Part shown: positions 20,709-32,521 of the stretch, piece by piece
How positions within the stretch are numbered: the first letter of the stretch is position 1
Layout of the letters: each line of letters opens with the position of its first letter
Sequence record: QB031382.1
From: a phage
DNA length: 64,000 bases
Strand: one strand, 5' to 3'
Position numbers and translations under genes: made by a program
The notes under the pieces: generated by a model
What the model saw: the letters and a program-made list of their open reading frames with translations, nothing else
The model's database searches: none
What the model was told of the DNA's origin: nothing

Positions 20709-22169
20709 TTATTTAGCGTACTCGATCAATTCTACAGTTTTCCCAAAGCTTGGGATATAATTTTTATTATACCCTTCGGTGAGAACCCATAAAGTATCGT
20801 ACTTTTTCCACTTGTTGTCAACAGCCTTTTGTTCAAAGTTATGCTCAAAGTATAGGTCGGTCAGGACGATGACATCTTTTGCATTTGGTATGTTAGCGTC
20901 CAGATACTCGAACACGCAAGCGGCTGTTGTTCCCCATGTTGAGTGGACCTCATAGTTGATCATCTCGTCGATGTTCCCACGAGTGTATACTTTAACCTCT
21001 CCAACCTCGGTTGACCAGCAGAACATCGTAACCTTGAACTCTTTATACAGATTGCACAACCCAGTGATCTCATTGAACATTTTCTTTAAAGTTCTTTGGG
21101 AGATCGATCCAGAAACGTCTAGAGCCACCACAATATCTATAGTGTTTTCCGGATTACGACCTGGAACAACAACGTGCTGATTCTTGTTTATAGCCCCAAC
21201 TTTTCGCATTGTGCTGGTCAAAGACCCAGATCGGCGACCGGGTTTTCTATAGGTTAGTTCAGCCTTTCGTTTAGACAGCATACGTTGCTTAATGATGTCT
21301 ATATAATTGATTACAGGCTTACCTCTGTTCTTGACAAACTCACGCACAGCCTCAGGGCAACGACCTCCGGAAGCCTGCATTGCTGCTTCCAACATGTCAC
21401 CAGAGTCCTGCATGGCTTGATCTTTATCAGATTGACTGATCACTGGTTGTGGCTGATCATACCCCATCGCCTTTCCAAGATCATCACTAGTGCCACCGTT
21501 ACCACTCATGTGATCATCGGTTTGTCGTTTATCTCCTTGAGAGTTCTCTCCTTTACCGTTCTTACTTTTACCGCTATTCTGATCTCTTTGCTTATCAAGA
21601 ACCGCATAGACGTTCTCAGCAATCCATCCATGGAACCTCATGTCACAGTAGCAACTAGCTAAGAAGCCAAAAGGCTTACCTTTTACAAACGTAGTGCTTT
21701 TCCCCTTCGGGAAGAAAACACAAGGTGGCTTGCTAAAGTCAACCACAAGACCTGTGTTGATAACATGATCACAGGCAATATTGAACAGCTCCGGCTCAAA
21801 GCTTTTACCACGGACCAGATGATCACAGATAATATGTCCCACCTCATGCGATAGAAGAAATGCCACCTCTTTCACAGATTTGGGGGAATAGAAAACCTCA
21901 GCCATCTCAAACTGCTTGTCAGTCAAAGATGCCTTAAGAATGGTTTTGCGCTCATCGGCCAATCCCATAACGAACTCAGGACTGTAATAAATGCGTTTAT
22001 GATCTGTTGCCATGGTGGAGCACCATGTGTGGTTTTCTACGAACTGCAACCCTGATAACAGTGTGCCATAAAACGGCAGTTTTTCAAGAAGATACATACG
22101 TGCTGCCTGCAGCATTCGCAAGGCGTCATCTTTTTGTGCGGCAATGATTTCTGAACTTCTGCTATCCAT
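20709..22169 (-). CDS. vWA-domain protein with N-terminal HExxH metallopeptidase-like domain
   Basis: HEVGH zinc-binding-like motif in N-terminal half; MIDAS-type VVALDVSGSIS (DxSxS) in C-terminal half. Confidence 0.6.
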   Translation of the reverse strand: MDSRSSEIIAAQKDDALRMLQAARMYLLEKLPFYGTLLSGLQFVENHTWCSTMATDHKRIYYSPEFVMGLADERKTILKASLTDKQFEMAEVFYSPKSVKEVAFLLSHEVGHIICDHLVRGKSFEPELFNIACDHVINTGLVVDFSKPPCVFFPKGKSTTFVKGKPFGFLASCYCDMRFHGWIAENVYAVLDKQRDQNSGKSKNGKGENSQGDKRQTDDHMSGNGGTSDDLGKAMGYDQPQPVISQSDKDQAMQDSGDMLEAAMQASGGRCPEAVREFVKNRGKPVINYIDIIKQRMLSKRKAELTYRKPGRRSGSLTSTMRKVGAINKNQHVVVPGRNPENTIDIVVALDVSGSISQRTLKKMFNEITGLCNLYKEFKVTMFCWSTEVGEVKVYTRGNIDEMINYEVHSTWGTTAACVFEYLDANIPNAKDVIVLTDLYFEHNFEQKAVDNKWKKYDTLWVLTEGYNKNYIPSFGKTVELIEYAK

Positions 22170-22202
22170 TAAAACTCCAGAAGGGGCCTTTGGCCCCTGT
22201 CA

Positions 22203-23258
22203 TTATTTAACGTGCTTGAAAATACCAGCCAACTCGGTCATTGTCATGCGGGTGGTCTTCATGAGGTCTGTCATAGCCTTCTCCATAATTGGAGATACTA
22301 CCATAAAGTTACCTTTGGTGAAACCTTTATTCCAGTCGGTAACTAATAGTGGTTTAAGTCCGGACCCGAGACGCTCACCAGTTAAAGCACAACATTTTCG
22401 AATGTATGTGCTCTTAAACTGGCTGAATGACAGATCAACTTTCATACCTGCATCGTAGAACGTCTGGCAATAGAAAGTGTAAGCTTTGGCAATCTCAACA
22501 TCGTCAGGCAGTGCAGGAACCTCTTCTGTAAGCTCTTCTTCGCCCCCTTGAGGCTCTTTTTCCTCTTCGTGGTCTTGTTGTATCATTTCTTCAATCTCTT
22601 CTGTTACAGGCTCGTTTACAATGTCAGAAATGTGCTTGTTGGCTCCACGATTAGCCATGAAGTTTTTAAAATCCTGCATTGGTGACATATCTTCCTCCCA
22701 TTCTTCGTCAAAGAGTGCTAGTTTATCCTCTTCCGTTCCATATTGCAAGATGAAATCTTCAAAAGTGTAATCACCTTTCAATTTCTCCATACGCTCTTCG
22801 CTCAGGTGGAGCATCATCTGCTGGACAATTTTTCGATCAGTTTTGTCTTTAATCAAGATTGCGGTCTTTTTATCTACCAGGCAGTCTTTCAGAGAGTTAC
22901 ACCTCAATCCTACCACACAACAGTTATCAATTGCGTAAGGACCTTCATCATCTATCCGCTCCAGAGATGGGTAGAAAGGATTCCCCAGCCCGTTTTCATC
23001 TGTGTGCATGTCGAAAGGTATAAGGGTATAGTCGCATACCCCCTCTCCTAAAAGTTTTTTACCAAATAGGAGGTATTCTTCCCATGACAGGTTGAACTCT
23101 ATATCTCGTTTCCGTGCATTATTTTGTTTGCGTCTGTATTTTTTGAGCAGGCGCTCTAACTCTTCTGGTGTATAATATTTTTCAAGATTCATGAGTTGTC
23201 TCTTGTGCTCTGTAGGTGGAGAAATCTTATCAAGTGCCTGGGAATATGTCAACCTCAA
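22203..23258 (-). CDS. hypothetical protein with acidic central linker
   Basis: 351 aa; Cys-containing terminal regions with a degenerate HNH-like stretch (ERIDDEGPYAIDNCCVVGLRCN), long Glu/Asp-rich linker. Confidence 0.35.
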   Translation of the reverse strand: MRLTYSQALDKISPPTEHKRQLMNLEKYYTPEELERLLKKYRRKQNNARKRDIEFNLSWEEYLLFGKKLLGEGVCDYTLIPFDMHTDENGLGNPFYPSLERIDDEGPYAIDNCCVVGLRCNSLKDCLVDKKTAILIKDKTDRKIVQQMMLHLSEERMEKLKGDYTFEDFILQYGTEEDKLALFDEEWEEDMSPMQDFKNFMANRGANKHISDIVNEPVTEEIEEMIQQDHEEEKEPQGGEEELTEEVPALPDDVEIAKAYTFYCQTFYDAGMKVDLSFSQFKSTYIRKCCALTGERLGSGLKPLLVTDWNKGFTKGNFMVVSPIMEKAMTDLMKTTRMTMTELAGIFKHVK

Positions 23259-23265
23259 AAACGTG

Positions 23266-23294
23266 TTGACTTTACTCTAAATCCACGATATAGT
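23266..23294 (+). promoter_or_regulatory. sigma70-like promoter in divergent intergenic region
   Basis: -35 TTGACT, 17-bp spacer, -10 TATAGT upstream of gene at 23335. Confidence 0.45.
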
Positions 23295-23334
23295 TCACCC
23301 ATTCGAAAGAAAACGAACACAGGAGTACTTAATC

Positions 23335-24234
23335 ATGGCAAATCTTAACAGCTTTAGCACTCGATGGAAACAAGATATCACAACTAATCTCTCTGCAGGC
23401 GATATCCTTTCTGCAATTTACGAGGCTTTGGATGATAAAGCTACTTCAAAATCGGTTTGTACCAACCCGTTAATTCCTATGGTAATGAAGGTGATTGAGC
23501 GTAGGTTGGTATCCGGATCTGATAAGTGGACATATCTGGATAATGGAGGCCACACTTACTCCAACGGCTATGTAGATATAAAAGTAGAATATGCGGTATC
23601 ATATCGCCGGAGCGGCTCTGTAACTTTCAACTTCTCTGGTGGTTTCCGATCTCTGGCAACTTCACCTTTTGTTTCCTCAGAGCAGAAGTTTGAACTTCCG
23701 TTCCTTTGGATGATGGCTAACGCGACAGGCAAAACCCCTGTAAGCATTCGCGTAAAATACAACTACAACGGATCTAGTAAGATCTATGCCGAGAGTGTCT
23801 CAGCAAGTTTTTATTTTGTGATGGGGGATGGAATCCTCAAACATATAAAGATGTGCGATATGCATGATGTTATAAATGAAGTGACTGATAAGAATGTTCT
23901 GGTGAAGGATCTCAACAATTTTTATACACCGGGAGACTATTACGTCAACCGTCCACTGTGCATCTTTAATGCTGCACACCCTTTAGGTGAGTATTTGATT
24001 GCCAATAGTGATATTGCCAATAACCGCTTCGAGGTAGCAAGAGTACAGAATGAGGTGTTGACATCTTGCAAGAGCGGTGATAAGTTTACCGAAGAAGAGA
24101 TGGGTGTTTTAGAAATGATGGGATATAAGTGTAGCCTTTGGGTAGATGAGGTGTTTAATGACGGCATCTATGGACAGGATATTTACCCGTTAAAGAAGTA
24201 TACTGATTCCAGTTTAATTTACGCGGAGATTTGA
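23335..24234 (+). CDS. hypothetical protein
   Basis: 299 aa, first gene of rightward block. Confidence 0.45.
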   Translation: MANLNSFSTRWKQDITTNLSAGDILSAIYEALDDKATSKSVCTNPLIPMVMKVIERRLVSGSDKWTYLDNGGHTYSNGYVDIKVEYAVSYRRSGSVTFNFSGGFRSLATSPFVSSEQKFELPFLWMMANATGKTPVSIRVKYNYNGSSKIYAESVSASFYFVMGDGILKHIKMCDMHDVINEVTDKNVLVKDLNNFYTPGDYYVNRPLCIFNAAHPLGEYLIANSDIANNRFEVARVQNEVLTSCKSGDKFTEEEMGVLEMMGYKCSLWVDEVFNDGIYGQDIYPLKKYTDSSLIYAEI

Positions 24235-24509
24235 CTATGATGAAGGCATGTGGTAGTGTATACTATGTGGGTGAAAATGTTCAGGCAGACAGTGTGTGGA
24301 AATCCATTAAGTCCACCACCGATGATGCCTTCTTGAGCGGGCTATGTTTCCCCAATCCTGGAGACATTCTCCCTCACCCTGGGGATTTTGTTGTTAACAA
24401 GACAGATGGTTATACTGTGTGCCTGATGGTTGAAAAAATCTTTTTAGACACTAGACACAATCACCGTCTTGTGTTAAAATTTCAAGAATGTAAAATGACA
24501 GTTGCCTAA
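24231..24509 (+). CDS. hypothetical protein
   Basis: 92 aa, overlapping start/stop. Confidence 0.35.
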   Translation: MTMMKACGSVYYVGENVQADSVWKSIKSTTDDAFLSGLCFPNPGDILPHPGDFVVNKTDGYTVCLMVEKIFLDTRHNHRLVLKFQECKMTVA

Positions 24510-24521
24510 GGAGGCCTACCA

Positions 24522-24881
24522 ATGTCTAAAGTTACTTATCGTGCAGCTATTTACTGCAATGAGCAACCAATCAATAGTGATGGTCACTGCTTTTTTAAAG
24601 AAAATCAGTTGGGCTGTATTGCCCTCCTTGATGAAGGGGAAGGTTATATGATTGCATTGACAGGGTTTGAGCCTGAAGCCTTGGAAGCCAATCTGGACTA
24701 CCTGGTAGAGAAGGGTGCTGCAGACTTGGTTGCCAATGGCCTCTCCATAAGCCTTGAAGAAGTGGAGCGCTTCATGGGCAATTACCGTGTAGTGCGTGAG
24801 TTTACTGTCGAGGTGGAAACTCCAGAGTGGGGTAGCACTGAAACTAATGCTGAAGAAAAAGAAGAGGGGGTAGAAGAATGA
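24522..24881 (+). CDS. hypothetical protein
   Basis: 119 aa, RBS AAGGAGG. Confidence 0.4.
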   Translation: MSKVTYRAAIYCNEQPINSDGHCFFKENQLGCIALLDEGEGYMIALTGFEPEALEANLDYLVEKGAADLVANGLSISLEEVERFMGNYRVVREFTVEVETPEWGSTETNAEEKEEGVEE

Positions 24882-25135
24882 AAGTGCAGATCTTGACTAA
24901 TGCCGAGAAGATGTTTATCGAAGATACGCCTTTTGAAACTGGTGAGCTACAGTTTGTATATTTTGTTGACTTAGATAAGGTTTTTCCTGCGCTGAATCTG
25001 GGTTTGGAGAAAGTACCTTATAAAACTCTATGCCAGGTTGTCCGTGCCTTAGCTGCAGATGGGGAGTTCCACACCCTTGAAGATATCCAGACCTATGGGT
25101 ATCTTGAACTGCAACGAGAAGAAGAGGTAGACTGA
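24878..25135 (+). CDS. hypothetical protein
   Basis: 85 aa. Confidence 0.4.
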   Translation: MKVQILTNAEKMFIEDTPFETGELQFVYFVDLDKVFPALNLGLEKVPYKTLCQVVRALAADGEFHTLEDIQTYGYLELQREEEVD

Positions 25136-25137
25136 TA

Positions 25138-25518
25138 ATGGCCCAGTGGAAGACAACAGTTGACCTTCATGATCAGTGGTTAGGACGCATAACTGAAGAC
25201 GGGAAACTGGTAGAGTGGGACAACAAGCATGTTAGCGAGTTGGCAAGTATTGTGGCTGGCAAGTTACGCTCCAAGTTCCCTGAACAACTGGATCCTGATA
25301 GTTCAAAGTTCGATCCTGAGTTGGAGGATGTTGTATACTACTTCGACACCGTGGATGACTACGATGCGTGGTTTGCAGCACTGGAGTTATACCCACAAGG
25401 ATCCGCTATGCGCCGGATGGAAGAAGATTACCCTCCGTGTGAGCAATTCAATAGTGCAATGACTTGCCTTTATGATTGGGCAGATAAGAACCTTGTCTGG
25501 ATTCGGACTGCATTTTAG
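25138..25518 (+). CDS. hypothetical protein
   Basis: 126 aa. Confidence 0.4.
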   Translation: MAQWKTTVDLHDQWLGRITEDGKLVEWDNKHVSELASIVAGKLRSKFPEQLDPDSSKFDPELEDVVYYFDTVDDYDAWFAALELYPQGSAMRRMEEDYPPCEQFNSAMTCLYDWADKNLVWIRTAF

Positions 25519-25562
25519 TGGGTAGGGATGGCGGCAAGGATGCTGCTTAAGGAGCAGTAGAG

Positions 25563-25832
25563 ATGTTATACCAGCAGTACGAACTTCGTGCAGAAAAAGA
25601 ATTAAATTTTGACAAAGATATTCACAGATATTATTATGGGAAAGTTAGAGGACAAGCAAGAAAGTGTACTCCAACACTCTTTCATGCCAGCAGACGACTA
25701 GCTCCAGAAGAGGCAACAGCAGAAAGGGTTGCATATGGCTGGAGAGTTGCGTATGATATTGACAGATCCGATGTGATGTCTGTTTTGGAAAACTTTGAAA
25801 ACACTTACACACAAGTAGAGGACTTTTACTAA
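25563..25832 (+). CDS. hypothetical protein
   Basis: 89 aa. Confidence 0.4.
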   Translation: MLYQQYELRAEKELNFDKDIHRYYYGKVRGQARKCTPTLFHASRRLAPEEATAERVAYGWRVAYDIDRSDVMSVLENFENTYTQVEDFY

Positions 25833-27016
25833 TGTCAAGAAACGTATTCGAAAGTGGTCAAATCACTGTCCGCGAGTTGCCAGCTATTATTCAATTTGCC
25901 CAGCGTCATAACCGATCTGTCCTGATTTTAGGACCGATGGGTGTGGGGAAGAGCCAGGTGATGAAGCAGATTGCTGATAATATGTTCGGTGAGCGAGATG
26001 ACAACCTGGTTGACGTGCGGCTGTCAGATAAAGATCCTGCTGACTTATCTGGACTACCTATCCCTGTAGAGGCAGATGGAACTACACGCACAGTGTTTGC
26101 AATTCCAGAATTTTGGCCTGCAGACTCGGACTGGAGCGGAATTATCTTTCTGGATGAGCTTACTCATGCAGATAACTACCTGCAGAAGGTTGCAATGCAA
26201 ATTATGCTCGACCACAAGTGCGGCACCTATGCATTTCCTAAGGGCTCTGTTTTTGTAGCTGCAGGTAACCGTGCTACAGATGGTGCTGTTCTTTCGGCGC
26301 TCGAAGCTCCTCTGGCTAACCGCTTTATCATTGTAGAAGTTACAAGCAATGCAGAGGTATTTATTGAGGACTACGCATTCCTTAATGGTGTACATTCCTC
26401 TGTAATTGGATATCTGAAAAGAGTTCCATCAGCTATCGATAATTATGAGGCTATGGCTGAGATTAATTGTCCGTCTTTTGCCACACCGCGATCTTGGGTT
26501 GCTGCATCTGACATCCTGCACGATTTTGACAGCGGTATTATTTCTGACGCTATGGCTCGTGTTCTTCTGCAAGGTGCTATTGGTCACACTGCAGCGGTAG
26601 AAATCTGGACCTACCACACCAAGAAACGAAACTTGCCAGAAATCGGTCGGATTATGGCAGGGGGTTGCAAAGAGTATGTAGGTCCTAAGCAGCCAGACAT
26701 CTTGTGGATTCTGGGGTCTGAAGGTTGTATCGCTATTCGTAACATGATGGAAAATGCAAGTATCTCCGACGAAGATCTTGTCAGCTGTGTGGCAAACTTC
26801 CTTGATTTCCTTTGGGAAAATTTCAAAGATGAAAACCGAGACTTTGTATTCTCAGTCTTTATGGCGATGATGAAACCCAACGCCCTAGGGAATGCCTTAC
26901 TTATTGGTAAAGGCCGGGACAAGATCGTTGCTCAGCTGATCAAAGCATACCCAAACCTGATGAAGATTGTAAAAGAGTTTGGTGAAGAGTTTAGCGCCAT
27001 TTTAGCTAAAGCTTGA
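25832..27016 (+). CDS. AAA+ ATPase (MoxR/CobS-like)
   Basis: Walker A ILGPMGVGKSQ and Walker B IIFLDELTHAD; about 390 aa. Confidence 0.7.
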   Translation: MSRNVFESGQITVRELPAIIQFAQRHNRSVLILGPMGVGKSQVMKQIADNMFGERDDNLVDVRLSDKDPADLSGLPIPVEADGTTRTVFAIPEFWPADSDWSGIIFLDELTHADNYLQKVAMQIMLDHKCGTYAFPKGSVFVAAGNRATDGAVLSALEAPLANRFIIVEVTSNAEVFIEDYAFLNGVHSSVIGYLKRVPSAIDNYEAMAEINCPSFATPRSWVAASDILHDFDSGIISDAMARVLLQGAIGHTAAVEIWTYHTKKRNLPEIGRIMAGGCKEYVGPKQPDILWILGSEGCIAIRNMMENASISDEDLVSCVANFLDFLWENFKDENRDFVFSVFMAMMKPNALGNALLIGKGRDKIVAQLIKAYPNLMKIVKEFGEEFSAILAKA

Positions 27017-27025
27017 GGAGGTTGT

Positions 27026-27406
27026 ATGGCTAAAGTAGGTAAGCGGGGAAACTACCTGGTGGTATTGACAGAGGAGCCGGAGAAGGAGTACGAATGCAGC
27101 TCCACCTGCGTGATCGATATCCGAGAAAAAGATGTAGATGAAATCTGGTTTAAAATACTGGACGCTTGCGACAGTAGTGATTATTTCTTCATCTATGTCA
27201 ACGATAAAGCTGGGTTCTTCCATGACGATGGAGAGTTACCGTATGAAATCTATGAACTTGTAGAGGCTTGCCATCGTGGAGATGCGGAGTTGTTTGGTCT
27301 ACGGCTGAAAAGCGGTAAATTTTTCTACCAAGATGAGTGCATGAATCTTCACAACTTCGTAGAGGGGACTTGCAATGATGGAGAGATTTTGGCACACTAC
27401 GACTAA
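27026..27406 (+). CDS. hypothetical protein
   Basis: 126 aa, followed by terminator. Confidence 0.4.
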   Translation: MAKVGKRGNYLVVLTEEPEKEYECSSTCVIDIREKDVDEIWFKILDACDSSDYFFIYVNDKAGFFHDDGELPYEIYELVEACHRGDAELFGLRLKSGKFFYQDECMNLHNFVEGTCNDGEILAHYD

Positions 27407-27418
27407 TTTCTAAGACCA

Positions 27419-27446
27419 CCCCCGCTTCGGCGGGGATTTTCTATTT
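27419..27446 (+). terminator. rho-independent terminator
   Basis: Stem CCCCGC-TTCG-GCGGGG then ATTTTCTATTT; same stem core as the terminator at 1258. Confidence 0.6.
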
Positions 27447-27455
27447 GGAGTTATT

Positions 27456-27956
27456 GTGAAAATTAAGATCTTTGCTATTATTTTGAGCGCATTTTTATCG
27501 CTGCCTGTTGTTGCAGCACCAAAACAAAAAGTATATCACACCTGCAAGCCATCGGATACTAAGGAAAACATTCTAGCATGTAATATCTACAGGGAGGCTA
27601 GAGGGGATGGCACGATGGGTATGCTGGCATCAGGGTTTGCCACACTAAACAGGAAATCTCACCCCAAATACCCGGACACCATAAGAAAGATTGTCTACCA
27701 ACCTAACCAGTTTTCGTGGACAAACCACGGCAAAACTTTTAAGGTGACAGAAAAAGATTCATGGGATCACGCTAAAAGTCTTGCAAAGATGCTTCTAAAG
27801 GTCTATAATAACAACCATGTTGCATACATGGCTATGGATATAACAGGTGGAGCAACACACTATCATACAACAAAAGTACGACCGAAATGGGCAAAAAAGA
27901 TGCAGAGGACAGCTCAATTCGGGAGTCATATCTACTACAAGGAGCGCAATAAATGA
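27456..27956 (+). CDS. secreted cell-wall hydrolase, SleB-like (candidate endolysin)
   Basis: N-terminal signal peptide MKIKIFAIILSAFLSLPVVAAP; motif NIYREARGDG resembles the GEARGE signature of SleB-type hydrolases. Confidence 0.55.
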   Translation: MKIKIFAIILSAFLSLPVVAAPKQKVYHTCKPSDTKENILACNIYREARGDGTMGMLASGFATLNRKSHPKYPDTIRKIVYQPNQFSWTNHGKTFKVTEKDSWDHAKSLAKMLLKVYNNNHVAYMAMDITGGATHYHTTKVRPKWAKKMQRTAQFGSHIYYKERNK

Positions 27957-29935
27957 TTGTAAACAGTAATGAAACTAAAGCAGTGCTAACTGGGAATTTG
28001 GAGGTAACAAGGGGATCAATTTCTCTGAACAAAGAAACTTTTGGGTTAATCATTAAAGGGATTTATGAAGATAAGGTGCTGGCAAGCTGCCGTGAACCAA
28101 TCTTCAATGCTGTGGACTCTCATGTTGAGTCTGGACGTGGTGATGTTCCGATCATCATTCACTCCCCTACAGATCTTGAACCATACTTCTTTGTGCAGGA
28201 CGTTGGCCTCGGTATGTCAGAAGAGATGGTCCGCAACACTTTCATGAACCTCGGCGAGTCAACCAAGCGCGACAGCAACGATCTGGTAGGCAATAAAGGT
28301 GTTGGTTCAAAGGCCCCGTTCAGCATGGTGGACACTTTCGATGTAATCAGTGTGCACAATGGTGTGGAAAGCACATACCTATTGTTCTTGGACCAGGGTA
28401 TCCCAAATGTCACCAAGATCCGTGAGCGGAAGACTGAAGAGCACAATGGAGTAAAAGTTCAGTTTCATGTTAAGAAAGAGCATGTTCTGAAATATCGCAC
28501 CGCTATTGCATCATGTCTGCGCTATGCAAAATTTCCGTTCACTGTCACCGATCCGATGACGAGCAAGATGCTGGAGGGAGACAAAGTAGAGGCGCAGTAT
28601 TATTATGAAAAAGATGGTTGGAAGATGACCATCCTGAAGGGCTATACCAGCTCTGACGAGAGTCGTGTGGTAATGGGTCACCAACCTTACCGTTCTAAGT
28701 TCCTGGAAACACTAACAGATTATCCTGCAATTTGTGTAGAGATCCCTATCGGAGATTGCAATATTAACCCAGGGCGTGAATGGACCATAGAAGGTCACGA
28801 CGATGGTGGATTCCAAGAGCGTTTGGAAGCTTTTGTCAAAGAAGGCATTCGCCTTCGTGGAGCAGAAGTTGTTGCAGAACTGGAGACAGCAAAAACATCC
28901 TCAGAAGCACGCGAGATGATGAAGAACAGTGGAGTGTTCGGGCACATCTTCGGTAAGAATTTTATGTATAACCGTTGGGAAGAAACAGGACTAGGGAATT
29001 TGGGGGACTGCGAGATCTTCGCGGGTGGCTTAAATAAAGGCCGCATAGGCTACGCTTGTTACGGAAAGGTAGAATTCTTACGAGGAGTCTATTTAGTATT
29101 TAACGACGGAGACGGTAAATATAACCGAAATAAGTGTAACTACTTAAGCGAGATCACCGGACGCAACGTTTTCTATTGCCGGAACACGGATCTGGTAAAA
29201 GAGTTTAAAGAGGCGGCACACCATCCGTTTTTTGCAGATACGGTCAAATTGTTATCAGAGCTTCCTCGCCGACCTGTGAAGAAAGGTGAAACCAAAACTC
29301 GTTACGAGCCAGGCTATTGGGTTAAAAAACTTGAGAAGGATGGTTACTTCCGTCGTGAGCGTATTACTAAGGCAGAGTTCAGGAAGATTAAGCACTGCAT
29401 TCCTTATGAGGGTGATATCCAACGTGGAAGTTGTTGGCTGGGACAGCTGAGTAACATCTACCAGCAAAATTATGACCGTGTGCGTGCGGCACTCCAGATT
29501 CCTGAAGGGGAAGATCTGTACCTAGTATCAGAATCTCGTCTGCTTTGGACTGATCCTGATTGCCAGTATGTTACAGAGAAGAATGTGGAACATTTGTTGA
29601 AAGAGGACGCCTGGAAATTCTTACTGACTCGCGCAGCAAATGAAACTTCATATGACAGCCTGTATAGACAATTAGGGAAAATTATTCCCATGCAAGATTT
29701 TGGAAATTATCGGCCACATTTCCACAAGTGGGAAGGTAACACCGCGTGGAAGCACAGTGAGCTAAATCATCGTGCCAAAATCTTAATCGCCAACCGAGTT
29801 AAATGCGGGAAGGCCTATATTGCAAGATTGGAAAAGAAATACCCACTTTTGAAGCATGTAGGCTTGAAATATTGGGACACTCCTGCTATGATTGAATACC
29901 GTGAACTGATCGATACAAAGAATAACATCAAATAA
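27953..29935 (+). CDS. HSP90/HtpG-like GHKL ATPase
   Basis: N-terminal KETFGL...YEDKVL...REPIFNAVDS, G1 box VQDVGLGMS, G2 box GNKGVGSKA line up with the HSP90 ATPase domain; start overlaps upstream stop (ATGA). Confidence 0.55.
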   Translation: MIVNSNETKAVLTGNLEVTRGSISLNKETFGLIIKGIYEDKVLASCREPIFNAVDSHVESGRGDVPIIIHSPTDLEPYFFVQDVGLGMSEEMVRNTFMNLGESTKRDSNDLVGNKGVGSKAPFSMVDTFDVISVHNGVESTYLLFLDQGIPNVTKIRERKTEEHNGVKVQFHVKKEHVLKYRTAIASCLRYAKFPFTVTDPMTSKMLEGDKVEAQYYYEKDGWKMTILKGYTSSDESRVVMGHQPYRSKFLETLTDYPAICVEIPIGDCNINPGREWTIEGHDDGGFQERLEAFVKEGIRLRGAEVVAELETAKTSSEAREMMKNSGVFGHIFGKNFMYNRWEETGLGNLGDCEIFAGGLNKGRIGYACYGKVEFLRGVYLVFNDGDGKYNRNKCNYLSEITGRNVFYCRNTDLVKEFKEAAHHPFFADTVKLLSELPRRPVKKGETKTRYEPGYWVKKLEKDGYFRRERITKAEFRKIKHCIPYEGDIQRGSCWLGQLSNIYQQNYDRVRAALQIPEGEDLYLVSESRLLWTDPDCQYVTEKNVEHLLKEDAWKFLLTRAANETSYDSLYRQLGKIIPMQDFGNYRPHFHKWEGNTAWKHSELNHRAKILIANRVKCGKAYIARLEKKYPLLKHVGLKYWDTPAMIEYRELIDTKNNIK

Positions 29936-29945
29936 GGAGACCAAG

Positions 29946-31151
29946 ATGATTTTCATCTACGAACATTTCAAAACCCGTAAAGAAGCAAGAGACCGCCGTG
30001 CAGAACTTGAGAAGAAGGGTTTCATATGTGCCATTGAGAAAGGCGACACAACCTGGACACTGGCAGTTGGTGCCCCAGAGTTGTTCGATCCTGACCGTGA
30101 CAGCGTCTGCTACACCCGTGAAGATTTTGAAACCCGCGAAGAGGCCCGTTTATTTCGATACGGTCTGGAAGATAACGGTAAGTACGCCATGATCTTAGAT
30201 TTAGGCGAAGGGTCCGTTAAACGTTGGGGCGTGGTATACCCACTGTGTGTTGTTCATGGTGTGGGGTTCACTGGGGTAGCAATCAAGTCAGAAGAACCTT
30301 TAGTAGAAGTCAAAGATCCGGTGCTGGAGGTGGTGAGCAGTGTATCTCAGCAACAGACTCGAAGTATTGAGCCTTTGGTAGTTATTTGTGGGGAACTCCT
30401 CCAGATCACCTGCAACGAAGGCATTTTTGAAATTCGCCGCAGTGAAAGTGAGGAAGTTTACCAGAAAGTCTTCGACCATATCTCTGCCCAGAAATATGAC
30501 GAGGCAATTGGTGAAATCCTTGTCTGGTTGGAACGCAAGAATGAGTTCACTACACTTGCAGACAACCTGATCATGAAAGATGGTAAGCTCTACTACTACG
30601 GTGTAGAGATGCGATCCACCATTGCAAAGAAAATTGAGAAAGATTATGCAGACGGAACACTAGATGACCGCTATGTGAAATTCCTAGTTCGCCTGCTACG
30701 CAATCCTTCTGCAAAATCTGTAAACATGCTCTACGATTTTATGCAGGCCAACGATATCCAGGTTGCAGAAGATGGTCGAATCATTTGCTACAAAGGGGTT
30801 CAGTTTAACGGCAGCAAGTGGGTGGATTGGCACAGTGGTAAAGTTCCACAATACCAGGGTGCTTTTGTATCCATGCCTCGTAACTTTGTAGAGGATGATC
30901 CTGAAGCTGCTTGCTCCTATGGCTTACACTGCGCCAGCAAAGAGTATGCAAAGAGCTACGGCACTGTAATGACTGTTATGGTTGATCCTGCAGATGTGGT
31001 CAGTGTGCCATACCAACACAATAGCGCTAAGTGCCGTGCATGCCGCTATGAGATTGTGGTAGCTCCGGAAGCACGCAAAGACGGAGACCCTATTGAATAT
31101 GTAGTTGATCGTGACGGTAACACTATCGACATTCTTTACGAGGAGGCGTAA
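29946..31151 (+). CDS. hypothetical protein with duplicated N-terminal module
   Basis: 401 aa; two about 35-aa repeats (FKTRKEARDRRAELEKKGF / FETREEARLFRYGLEDNGK); Cys/His-rich C-terminal part. Confidence 0.45.
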   Translation: MIFIYEHFKTRKEARDRRAELEKKGFICAIEKGDTTWTLAVGAPELFDPDRDSVCYTREDFETREEARLFRYGLEDNGKYAMILDLGEGSVKRWGVVYPLCVVHGVGFTGVAIKSEEPLVEVKDPVLEVVSSVSQQQTRSIEPLVVICGELLQITCNEGIFEIRRSESEEVYQKVFDHISAQKYDEAIGEILVWLERKNEFTTLADNLIMKDGKLYYYGVEMRSTIAKKIEKDYADGTLDDRYVKFLVRLLRNPSAKSVNMLYDFMQANDIQVAEDGRIICYKGVQFNGSKWVDWHSGKVPQYQGAFVSMPRNFVEDDPEAACSYGLHCASKEYAKSYGTVMTVMVDPADVVSVPYQHNSAKCRACRYEIVVAPEARKDGDPIEYVVDRDGNTIDILYEEA

Positions 31152-32521
31152 TGGAAAAAGGGCAGTATGATGTAGGCACAGATGCTGCCCTCGTTGCAAT
31201 CATGAGCGGTGAGAATGTCTTCGTTTCAGGACCTGCAGGTTGTGGGAAGACGTATCTCATCAACATGATCCAGTCAATGTATGGAGACTCTTGCATAACG
31301 GTTGCCCCGACAGGGGTAGCCGCTTTAAACGTTAATGGAGCAACAGCACACCGAACCTTCGATCTTGCAGCAGGTGTGAGCATGGAGTCAGACTGGACCG
31401 CAATAAGGGCAAAAACAGCAAAGCCTTTGAAAAGCAAGGCATTTACCATCCTAATTATCGATGAAATCTCTATGATCCGTGCTGATAAGTTTATAGAGAT
31501 GGATAGGAAACTCCGCTTCCTTCGAAAAAATGACAAACCTTTCGGAGACATACAGGTCATATTGTTTGGCGATTTTTACCAGGCACCTCCTGTTGTCTCT
31601 TCTATGGAGAAGGAAGCCTACTTCAACTTCTACCATACGGACCTGTGTTGCTATACCGAATCTTGGAAAGAGCTTGACCTCCACAACATAGCCCTAGTAG
31701 ATCAGTTCCGACAGGAGTCTATTCGATTTGCCACAATGCTCAACTGTGTTCGTGAGGGTCGTCGCATAAAAGAGGTTGTAGCAGAACTTAATGCTCGCTG
31801 TTACAAAGGCGGTGTACCAACAGACGCTCTCACAATTTGCGCCACCAACAAACAAGCGGAGGAAGTGAACAGAAGGTTCTATGATGCCATCAACGCCCCA
31901 GAGAAGGTATACACTGGTGAAATGAAGGGTAAGTTTCCCTCCACCCTGCCAGTTGAGCAGGAGATGAAGTTGAAAATTGGCATGAAAGTTATGATAACCG
32001 CCAACGATGTTGACCCGACGCACAAGGTACCTTATTATGTTAACGGAACACGTGCCACAATTGTTAAATTTAAGAACAAGGCGGTGGTGGTAGAGCTTGA
32101 AGATGGAACACAGGTTGACATAGAGCAGAGGTTGTGGGAGAATAACGAGTATAAGCCATCTCAGAGATACAACATTGCAGAAAGGAAGATGGAGAAGTTT
32201 ATAGAGAGGGTAGTGATTGGGTCATACAAGCAACTTCCTCTGAAATCTGGGTACGCCGTAACATCTCATAAAAGTCAAGGGCTTACGCTAGATTGTTACA
32301 ACCTAGACCTTGGAAAGAACGGAGCTTTCTCTCCTGGGATGACGTATGTCGCTTTGAGTAGAGTTAAGACAATACAAGGAATAAACTTGTTGCGTCCACT
32401 AAGAGAAGTTGACATTATTGTTGACCCGCGAGTCGTAGAGTTTTACAATACAACATTCCCTGACTTAGACAAAATTGTCAGGAAAGATTTTGAAACCAGA
32501 GTAGAAGAGGGGGACGTATGA
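31151..32521 (+). CDS. SF1B DNA helicase (Dda / Pif1 / RecD-like)
   Basis: Walker A GPAGCGKT, Walker B IIDEISMI, C-terminal TSHKSQGLTLD. Confidence 0.75.
   Translation: MEKGQYDVGTDAALVAIMSGENVFVSGPAGCGKTYLINMIQSMYGDSCITVAPTGVAALNVNGATAHRTFDLAAGVSMESDWTAIRAKTAKPLKSKAFTILIIDEISMIRADKFIEMDRKLRFLRKNDKPFGDIQVILFGDFYQAPPVVSSMEKEAYFNFYHTDLCCYTESWKELDLHNIALVDQFRQESIRFATMLNCVREGRRIKEVVAELNARCYKGGVPTDALTICATNKQAEEVNRRFYDAINAPEKVYTGEMKGKFPSTLPVEQEMKLKIGMKVMITANDVDPTHKVPYYVNGTRATIVKFKNKAVVVELEDGTQVDIEQRLWENNEYKPSQRYNIAERKMEKFIERVVIGSYKQLPLKSGYAVTSHKSQGLTLDCYNLDLGKNGAFSPGMTYVALSRVKTIQGINLLRPLREVDIIVDPRVVEFYNTTFPDLDKIVRKDFETRVEEGDV

Follow-up and report, generated by a model that had tools for sequence, protein, structure and literature searches.

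Separated halves of a MoxR-type ATPase and zincin-vWA gene pair in an rV5-like phage

Introduction

Established couples of MoxR-type AAA+ ATPases and von Willebrand factor A (vWA) proteins combine a hexameric ATPase ring with one vWA adaptor, whose MIDAS, an adhesion site dependent on metal ions, binds carboxylates of the client (PMC7159879 and PMC9976466). The phage DNA analyzed here, a 64,000-nucleotide stretch of sequence record QB031382.1 (hereafter named the window), carries an AAA+ ATPase gene on one strand and, on the other, a gene for a vWA protein with an HExxH motif, which raises the question of whether two genes that are transcribed divergently with 3,662 bp between them are partners. 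Comparative analysis indicated that they are the separated halves of a known two-gene module, composed of an ATPase and a putative adaptor/protease, that is common in large phages, and that they are the same pair as gp24/gp25 of phage N4. The two genes and their motifs are located as follows.

20709–22169, minus strand: vWA protein of 486 residues with a zincin-like DUF2201_N domain and a vWA/MIDAS DUF2201 domain (rV5 gp12, N4 gp25 family)
21834–21848, minus strand: HEVGH, predicted zinc-binding/catalytic motif of the vWA protein, residues 108–112 (sequence motif and alignment of 27 homologues)
21105–21119, minus strand: MIDAS motif D351-x-S353-x-S355, with T414 and D438 further downstream in the protein (invariant columns)
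25832–27016, plus strand: AAA+ ATPase of the MoxR/AAA_5 clade, 394 residues (rV5 gp4, N4 gp24 family)
25931–25954, plus strand: Walker A motif GPMGVGKS, residues 34–41 (G37, G39, K40 and S41 invariant in 37 homologues)
26141–26158, plus strand: Walker B motif IIFLDE, residues 104–109 (D108 and E109 invariant in 37 homologues)

By nucleotide comparison with phage records, the 10 kb surrounding both genes showed 97.5% identity to Escherichia phage YP-6 and 93–97% identity to 126 records of rV5/FV3-like phages (genus Vequintavirus). Public records name the ATPase gene "MoxR ATPase" or "MoxR-like ATPase" and the vWA gene "VWA-like domain-containing protein", "metal-dependent peptidase" or "putative metallopeptidase". 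Table S3 of the rV5 paper from 2013 gives gp4 the name "MoxR - ATPase" and enters gp12 as a conserved hypothetical protein carrying PF13203 DUF2201_N (PMC3606486). This annotation, the N4-like literature and the jumbo-phage study of Iyer et al. 2021 mean that the kind of system is already known. New here are the explicit tie of the rV5-type genes to the N4 gp24/gp25 family, the recognition of the split as a lineage-specific rearrangement inside the Vequintavirinae, and a gene context that points to early or middle expression over a late assembly role.

Domains and catalytic motifs of the two proteins

Both open reading frames (ORFs) of the preliminary description, the plus-strand AAA+ gene with clear Walker A and B motifs and the minus-strand vWA gene with an HEVGH-bearing N-domain, are present at their positions. 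The vWA protein matched DUF2201_N (PF13203, "putative metallopeptidase") with an E value of 5e-28 and 98.8 bits (curated cut-off 23.2) and DUF2201 (PF09967, "VWA-like") with an E value of 3e-11, also above the curated cut-off. Across 27 homologues H108 and H112 were invariant, E109 and H117 were kept in at least 90%, and H117 and D134, both conserved, are candidate third metal ligands of the zincin-like domain. The vWA domain displays the Rossmann-like alpha/beta vWA fold, and its MIDAS residues D351, S353, S355, T414 and D438 were invariant in alignments of 11 and 27 homologues, down to 25% identity. The HExxH and DxSxS motifs each occurred in all 69 distinct loci, and the Walker A and Walker B motifs of the ATPase in 66 and 68 of them, respectively. 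Such strict conservation of the catalytic motifs implies a putatively active enzyme. The N-terminal helical domain of the vWA protein is without a solved relative; a PDB sequence search with the vWA profile returned no informative relative and only marginal integrin and M48 matches, and none of the PADLOC defence models matched the protein.

The ATPase consists of an AAA+ core (about residues 1–230) followed by a helical C-terminal extension (about residues 230–394). Besides the Walker residues, N146, R164 and R220 were invariant in the alignment of 37 homologues and are assigned here as the predicted sensor 1, arginine finger and sensor 2, with which the full AAA+ catalytic set is present. 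The preliminary description had called the protein MoxR/CobS-like. The MoxR half of this label stands: homologues at 31–35% identity bear precomputed AAA_3 (PF07726) and AAA_5 (PF07728) matches, and structural comparison of the predicted structure placed the MoxR-family proteins CbbQ and NorQ as the closest relatives. The CobS half is not supported: neither protein matched the CobS, CobT or CbbQ_C families in Pfam, NCBIfam and PHROG scans. In the ATPase model, strands 79–81 and 84–86 lie at the expected helix 2 within residues 66–92, where the predicted local distance difference test score (pLDDT) is below 50; a conserved DLxGxP motif spans residues 71–76, and strands of one to two residues at about 129–134 precede beta-4, where a pre-sensor-1 beta-hairpin would be expected. 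A PDB sequence search with the ATPase gave no informative relative, only P-loop matches to ClpB/ClpC, and PADLOC defence models gave P-loop-level matches only (E 6e-4 or weaker).

Co-occurrence and gene order of the pair

To cover close and distant relatives, 80 viral-metagenome loci with a relative of the vWA protein were joined with the contexts of distant homologues in a 578-kb megaphage, another phage contig and a Saccharofermentans metagenome-assembled genome (MAG), and all 83 loci were searched with profiles of both proteins. The preliminary description had named missing co-occurrence in related phages as a result that would speak against a partnership. Instead, the ATPase gene lay on the same strand and upstream of the vWA gene in 71 of the 83 loci, with a gap below 200 bp in 33, of 200–1000 bp in 27, of 1–3 kb in six and above 3 kb in five, so that 60 loci show the ATPase-then-vWA order within 1 kb. 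Five further loci, those most similar to the window, have the ATPase gene on the opposite strand at a distance of 3.6–5.2 kb. The ATPase was undetected in the remaining seven, four of which have less than 700 bp of upstream DNA.

The same order recurs in isolated phages of very different kinds: gp24-[HNH]-gp25 in the N4-like phage G7C, where an authentic HNH homing endonuclease (gp24.1) interrupts the pair, g028-g029 in Bacillus phage AR9 and gp482-gp481 in the Klebsiella jumbo phage RaK2, whose proteins match both profiles at 1e-28 to 1e-104. It is also found in phages CR3 and W70, in the 578-kb megaphage and in the Saccharofermentans MAG, and thus spans Schitoviridae, jumbo myoviruses, a Bacillus phage, a megaphage and a Firmicutes MAG at 23–30% protein identity. 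All Vequintavirinae loci examined contained the pair, which also occurs in RaK2-like jumbo phages and in PBS1/AR9-like phages. On the cellular side, a genome-contig search with the bacterial homologue P0025 recovered its own MAG locus only, so that the distribution in cellular genomes is poorly covered here.

Among isolate phage records the vWA protein occurs in 672 and the ATPase in 813, with closely matching counts by host genus (vWA/ATPase: Escherichia 214/214, Pseudomonas 104/108, Pectobacterium 26/26, Cronobacter 17/17). The vWA-protein profile, run against 1.84 billion representatives of clusters at 50% identity, gave about 7,400 matches at E ≤1e-30, and the ATPase family is likewise very large (5,745 matches). 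These numbers, together with the standing of the pair among the core genes of N4-like phages (PMC4193335), contradict the earlier impression of a gene set unusual for a phage. Pairwise distances of the two proteins over the 69 distinct loci correlated at r = 0.94, a value reached by none of 999 permutations, which denotes co-inheritance and not interaction in itself. The vWA/ATPase pairing is real, and the proposal that the vWA/HExxH protein is the partner of the ATPase is borne out by co-occurrence and fixed order across very distant phages together with this correlation.

No conserved third gene was found beside or between the pair: the ORFs in the gap fall into a number of small clusters, none of them universal and the largest present in 16 loci, and none of the small window ORFs flanking either gene is conserved outside Vequintavirinae-like loci. 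The position of rIIA near the pair in G7C prompted a search for a linkage of rIIA/rIIB to the pair, and none was present in the metagenomic loci.

The split arrangement and its promoters

The window departs from adjacency on one strand with the ATPase upstream, and the same split is seen in five metagenomic loci (L007–L011), whose vWA proteins are 43–62% identical to that of the window. Within the same subfamily, Cronobacter phage CR3 (genus Certrevirus) has CR3_112 preceding CR3_113 and Escherichia phage W70 has W70_34 preceding W70_33, with gaps of about 70–80 bp and 34–38% identity to the window proteins. Since these two Vequintavirinae keep the adjacency, the divergent arrangement is derived. 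Most phages have the two genes adjacent with the ATPase first, and in Vequintavirus and its closest genera the vWA gene has moved to the opposite strand behind a gene for an Srd-like protein. That gene adjoins the vWA gene in all five split loci, and both members of the pair are intact in each of them. The elements surrounding the split are listed below.

22203–23192, minus strand: gene for an Srd-like "anti-sigma factor" (rV5 gp11), which lies directly upstream of the vWA gene in the same transcription unit (PHROG 3118, Srd/decoy-of-sigma70 families, GenBank, rV5 paper)
22182–22198, minus strand: GC-rich perfect 7-bp hairpin AGGGGCC-AAA-GGCCCCT between the Srd-like stop codon and the GGAG ribosome-binding site of the vWA gene
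23193–23334, no strand: divergent intergenic region with back-to-back sigma-70-like promoters (consensus scan)
23266–23294, plus strand: promoter-like site TTGACT-17-TATAGT heading the operon that reaches the ATPase gene (consensus match)
23252–23224, minus strand: promoter-like site TTGACA-17-TAAGAT, preceded by TG, serving the Srd-like and vWA genes (consensus match)
25609–25637, plus strand: internal site resembling a strong promoter about 195 bp upstream of the ATPase start, TTGACA-17-TATTAT with 11 of 12 positions matched (consensus match only)
27026–27406, plus strand: ORF of 126 residues downstream of the ATPase gene (rV5 gp3 in the rV5 gene table)
27420–27435, plus strand: terminator-like hairpin after the 126-residue ORF

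The two genes stand in divergent operons about 3.6 kb apart, as the preliminary description had it, and the back-to-back promoter-like sites lie between these operons. The rV5 paper reports bidirectional promoters at the equivalent place, between genes 10 and 11. GenBank records start the Srd-like gene at 23192, so the start at 23258 (TTG) in the ORF list is probably too far upstream. The first genes of the two operons begin about 140 bp apart. The split genes are probably still co-regulated. The Srd-like gene is context and not a member of the module. The hairpin at 22182–22198 might act as an attenuator, affect RNA stability or mark a processing site, and that at 27420–27435 is the probable end of the ATPase transcription unit. 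The product of the intervening ORF, gp3 of rV5, is homologous to phage T5 protein T5.083 according to the rV5 gene table (PMC3606486).

Expression timing and gene neighbourhood

In the window, both genes belong to the early region beside rIIA/rIIB and the Srd-like gene. With their first genes about 140 bp apart at a shared divergent host-type promoter region, the operons probably provide early or middle expression of the module. Evidence from other phages is consistent with this timing: N4 gp24 and gp25 are middle genes and count among the 14 core genes of N4-like phages (PMC4193335), and an annotated early promoter lies just upstream of AR9 g028. In the rV5 gene table, neither gp4 nor gp12 is tagged as a structural protein with mass-spectrometry evidence (PMC3606486).

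The recurrent larger neighbours in the metagenomic loci (L012–L086) are ThyA (24), ThyX (seven) and 5'-3' exonuclease (27), together with sugar-modifying enzymes, and not structural genes. ThyA or ThyX lies within 6 kb of the pair in 31 loci (for example, L058 13130–14122, L061 11425–12126 and L080 6422–7528). In G7C a dCTP deaminase gene directly follows the pair and ThyX comes about 1.6 kb further on, and in RaK2 td is about 1.8 kb downstream; the window itself lacks such nucleotide-metabolism neighbours. The module is probably expressed alongside genes for replication, nucleotide metabolism and host takeover.

Proposed function and alternative explanations

With moderate confidence, the two genes are taken to encode two subunits of one conserved phage machine that couples ATPase remodelling with adaptor-targeted proteolysis in early or middle infection. 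This proposal builds on what was observed: the identity of the domains, their intact catalytic motifs, the conserved linkage and order of the genes, the co-divergence of the proteins and the promoter context. The MoxR-type ATPase would form a hexameric ring on which the C-terminal vWA domain of the adaptor would dock, the MIDAS metal site would grip an acidic residue or peptide of the target protein, and the N-terminal HExxH zincin-like domain would cleave the gripped target or a neighbouring protein. Overall, the pair would act as a two-chain, adaptor-targeted, ATP-dependent device for remodelling and proteolysis in the cytoplasm. Physical interaction, hexamer formation and MIDAS-mediated substrate capture are suggested by analogy with CbbQ/CbbO and NorQ/NorD, and proteolysis is predicted from the motifs of the zincin-like domain. 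For NorQ, the published work describes a hexamer that binds one NorD via a vWA domain plugging the ring pore, and its authors propose a general MoxR/vWA mode (PMC9976466). A more specific version is put forward only tentatively and at low probability, namely that from N4-like podoviruses to megaphages the pair is a trans-acting, adaptor-targeted ATP-dependent protease of early or mid infection for host takeover or counter-defence. One or a few host proteins, or early proteins of the phage, would be selected by the MIDAS, unfolded or extracted by the MoxR ring and cleaved by the zincin domain. The place of the vWA gene behind the Srd-like sigma-factor decoy might hint at the transcription apparatus as target.

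Several observations weigh against the two-subunit machine. The ATPase scores below the Pfam thresholds (AAA_5, 17.0 bits with a cut-off of 22; bpMoxR, 15.8 bits with a cut-off of 27), so its MoxR assignment relies on homologues and predicted structure, and the helix-2 insert region of the model falls in the segment of low pLDDT. In the homologue P0026 the HExxH position reads HAVCH. Of the 76 informative loci, three (L062, L066 and L067, viral contigs of which two are mutually related) have the vWA gene without an ATPase within 10 kb on either side, which reflects either a wider split or loss of the partner. The consensus scan behind the promoter-like sites found 40 matches, compared with 30.4 expected from shuffled sequences. 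In the searchable literature no experiment on any family member (DUF2201, N4 gp24/gp25 or phage MoxR) was found, only annotations and two comparative-genomics papers from the Aravind group.

One alternative is a role in virion assembly: the pair would act as a chaperone/protease that helps build a structure such as the tail or head, and structural proteins would be processed by the zincin domain. Such a role has been proposed for jumbo phages by analogy with p618/p892 of Acidianus two-tailed virus (Iyer et al. 2021, PMC7824862), the RaK2 pair lies just downstream of three "virion structural protein" genes, maturation of protein complexes is what MoxR-vWA pairs generally do (PMC7159879 and PMC9976466), and early expression does not strictly preclude it. 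However, the context data weigh against assembly: the window pair sits in an early region with rIIA/rIIB, the Srd-like gene and host-type promoters, in AR9 the pair has an early promoter upstream, gp24/25 of N4 are middle genes, the usual neighbours are thymidylate synthase and 5'-3' exonuclease genes, and the rV5 table tags neither protein as structural, which makes an assembly role rather unlikely. The pair might instead insert a metal cofactor or mature an enzyme in the manner of NorQ/NorD, CoxD/E and chelatases, activating a phage or host metalloenzyme, for example one of nucleotide metabolism, with the HExxH domain as a metal-binding or substrate-holding module rather than a protease. The ATPase's closest structural relatives, CbbQ and NorQ, do remodel or metallate enzymes (PMC9976466), and the pair is repeatedly found near nucleotide-metabolism genes (the 31 loci with ThyA/ThyX, G7C and RaK2). 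Against this stand the HExxH signature, which with its conserved glutamate is that of a hydrolytic zincin in a domain that Pfam calls a putative metallopeptidase, the absence of nucleotide-metabolism neighbours from the window and the lack of any specific client enzyme that co-varies with the pair. To our knowledge, neither type of thymidylate synthase requires a metal cofactor. Cofactor insertion is accordingly judged improbable.

The split itself could be read as a sign that the two proteins act independently, their co-occurrence reflecting shared vertical descent in large phage genomes and their genes being uncoupled in Vequintavirus. The opposite strands, the distance of 3.66 kb and the different operons in the window are in line with this, as are the three loci lacking a nearby ATPase, and any two genes with vertical inheritance would be expected to give a mirror-tree correlation. 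Yet the ATPase-then-vWA order with a gap below 1 kb persists in 60 loci of unrelated genomes at 23–30% identity, and adjacency that persists across otherwise unrelated genomes is a classic signature of a functional couple. Furthermore, both genes remain intact in all five split loci, and MoxR-vWA coupling is well established (PMC7159879 and PMC9976466). The conserved order thus weighs against independent action, for which there is very little likelihood.

Comparison with known systems

The N4-like pair shares the two-domain zincin-vWA architecture with the window pair, and in G7C gp24 matched the ATPase profile at 2e-48 and gp25 the vWA profile at 4e-51 (BLASTP 2e-21 and 1e-16). The N4-like literature treats gp24 (AAA ATPase) and gp25 (vWFA) as core genes of unknown function. 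The identity between N4-like and window proteins is only 23–24%, and the N4-like genes sit side by side on one strand, in some cases separated by an HNH homing endonuclease, whereas the window genes lie 3.66 kb apart on opposite strands. The Vequintavirus vWA protein also exceeds its N4-like counterpart by about 90 residues and has an additional helical insert after residue 70 as well as a low-complexity linker at 201–228.

Iyer et al. 2021 (Viruses 13:63, PMC7824862) described a MoxR ATPase and a vWA-metallopeptidase as a "chaperone-cochaperone pair" in group 2.2 jumbo phages. Both that pair and the window pair combine a MoxR ATPase with a vWA protein bearing an N-terminal metallopeptidase domain, and RaK2-type jumbo phages contain clear homologues of the window proteins (1e-82 and 2e-104). 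In contrast to the jumbo-phage pair, the window belongs to a 137-kb non-jumbo Vequintavirus, its genes are split, and its context is early/middle, compared with the virion assembly proposed there. Acidianus two-tailed virus p618 (MoxR)/p892 (vWA), likened here by description, is a virus-encoded couple and the cited precedent for a chaperone role; it comes, however, from an archaeal virus, its vWA protein lacks a peptidase domain, and the couple has been implicated in the development of tails outside the cell.

Among cellular systems, CbbQ/CbbO (Rubisco activase) and NorQ/NorD (nitric-oxide reductase maturation) have specific cellular metalloenzymes as clients, and CbbO and NorD are without an HExxH peptidase-like domain. 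The window ATPase differs from CbbQ and NorQ in its helical C-terminal extension of about 165 residues and in its scores below the AAA_5 and bpMoxR thresholds. FtsH, an AAA+ protein fused to an M41 zincin protease, resembles the pair in joining an AAA+ motor with an HExxH protease, a functional analogy only: it belongs to the classical AAA clade, is one membrane-anchored chain and has no vWA/MIDAS adaptor, and no sequence or structural similarity was detected between M41 and the N-terminal domain of the vWA protein.

The pair is an ordinary member of a known but functionally uncharacterized module. As gene pairs of unknown function go, this module is among the more widespread in large virulent phages. 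The analysis reveals no new kind of system; it corrects a reading of rIIA as HSP90 and exposes an "HNH endonuclease" misannotation of the vWA protein, both detailed below. E. coli rV5-like phages, including members of the BASEL collection, are genetically tractable, and since the genes are split here, each can be deleted without a polar effect on the other, which makes these phages a convenient system for finding substrates.

The rIIA gene and other neighbouring genes

27953–29935: rIIA (PHROG 612, E 5e-125, full length; GHKL ATPase domain PF13589), with rIIB next
31151–32521, plus strand: SF1 helicase of Dda/RecD-like type, "AAA family ATPase" in YP-6 (GPAGCGKT, ILIIDEISM, TSHKSQGLT, YVALSRV)

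The preliminary description had grouped the pair with an HSP90-like gene into an unusual chaperone-like set. The gene concerned, at 27953–29935, is rIIA, which shares only the GHKL ATPase domain with HSP90. An identity as HSP90 chaperone is ruled out by the full-length rIIA match, by the score of 22.2 bits with the NCBIfam HSP90 model (cut-off 455) and by the rIIB gene that directly follows (PHROG E 1.5e-61). The segment 27953–31151 is thus an ordinary rIIA/rIIB pair of large virulent phages, and no special chaperone gene set is implied. In phage BP9 (PP488543; L002 14782–18001), rIIB is cut to 900 nucleotides and followed by an "IS2 insertion element repressor InsA" gene, with an integrase gene further on; it appears that an insertion sequence (IS) element has entered the rIIB of a virulent phage.

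The "AAA family ATPase" at 31151–32521 was considered as the true partner of the vWA protein and rejected, as it carries helicase motifs of superfamily 1 (SF1, Dda/RecD type) without a match to the ATPase profile; this helicase-like gene is unrelated to the MoxR-type ATPase. Upstream of rIIA, a SleB/CwlJ-type cell-wall hydrolase gene (27456–27956, plus strand; PF07486, E 2e-19) encodes a hydrophobic N-terminus, and its stop codon overlaps the rIIA start; it is located in the early region, apart from the usual lysis cassette. The plus-strand gene at 23335–24234 is called "putative alpha 1-3 fucosyltransferase" in several records. It had no Pfam match and matched only PHROG 12338, of unknown function, and this annotation looks unsupported.

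In the 578-kb megaphage contig Ga0495625_0000006 (L003 62–10591), the pair is clustered with genes for ClpX, ClpS, ClpP, Hsp20 and ribosomal protein S21, a setting that resembles a proteostasis neighbourhood encoded by the phage.

Database annotation

PHROG 1314 labels the zincin-vWA protein "HNH endonuclease", and the name has passed to many GenBank records, although a Pfam scan found no HNH domain in the protein. In the RaK2 record, the name was taken over from a similar Roseovarius phage ORF whose annotation is putative HNH endonuclease. The "HNH endonuclease" name for the vWA protein is a propagated misannotation. Besides the window gene, these annotation findings concern L087 3459–3935 and L089 3971–5356.

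Among the phage records similar to the window, 16 unannotated "Campylobacter phage" entries with Campylobacter jejuni in the host field are 93–98% identical to E. coli rV5-like phages across the region (database matches H15–H18, H24, H25, H28, H31 and H34, MG0656xx, are among the records so labelled). This identity suggests that the "Campylobacter phage" entries are mislabelled or contaminated.

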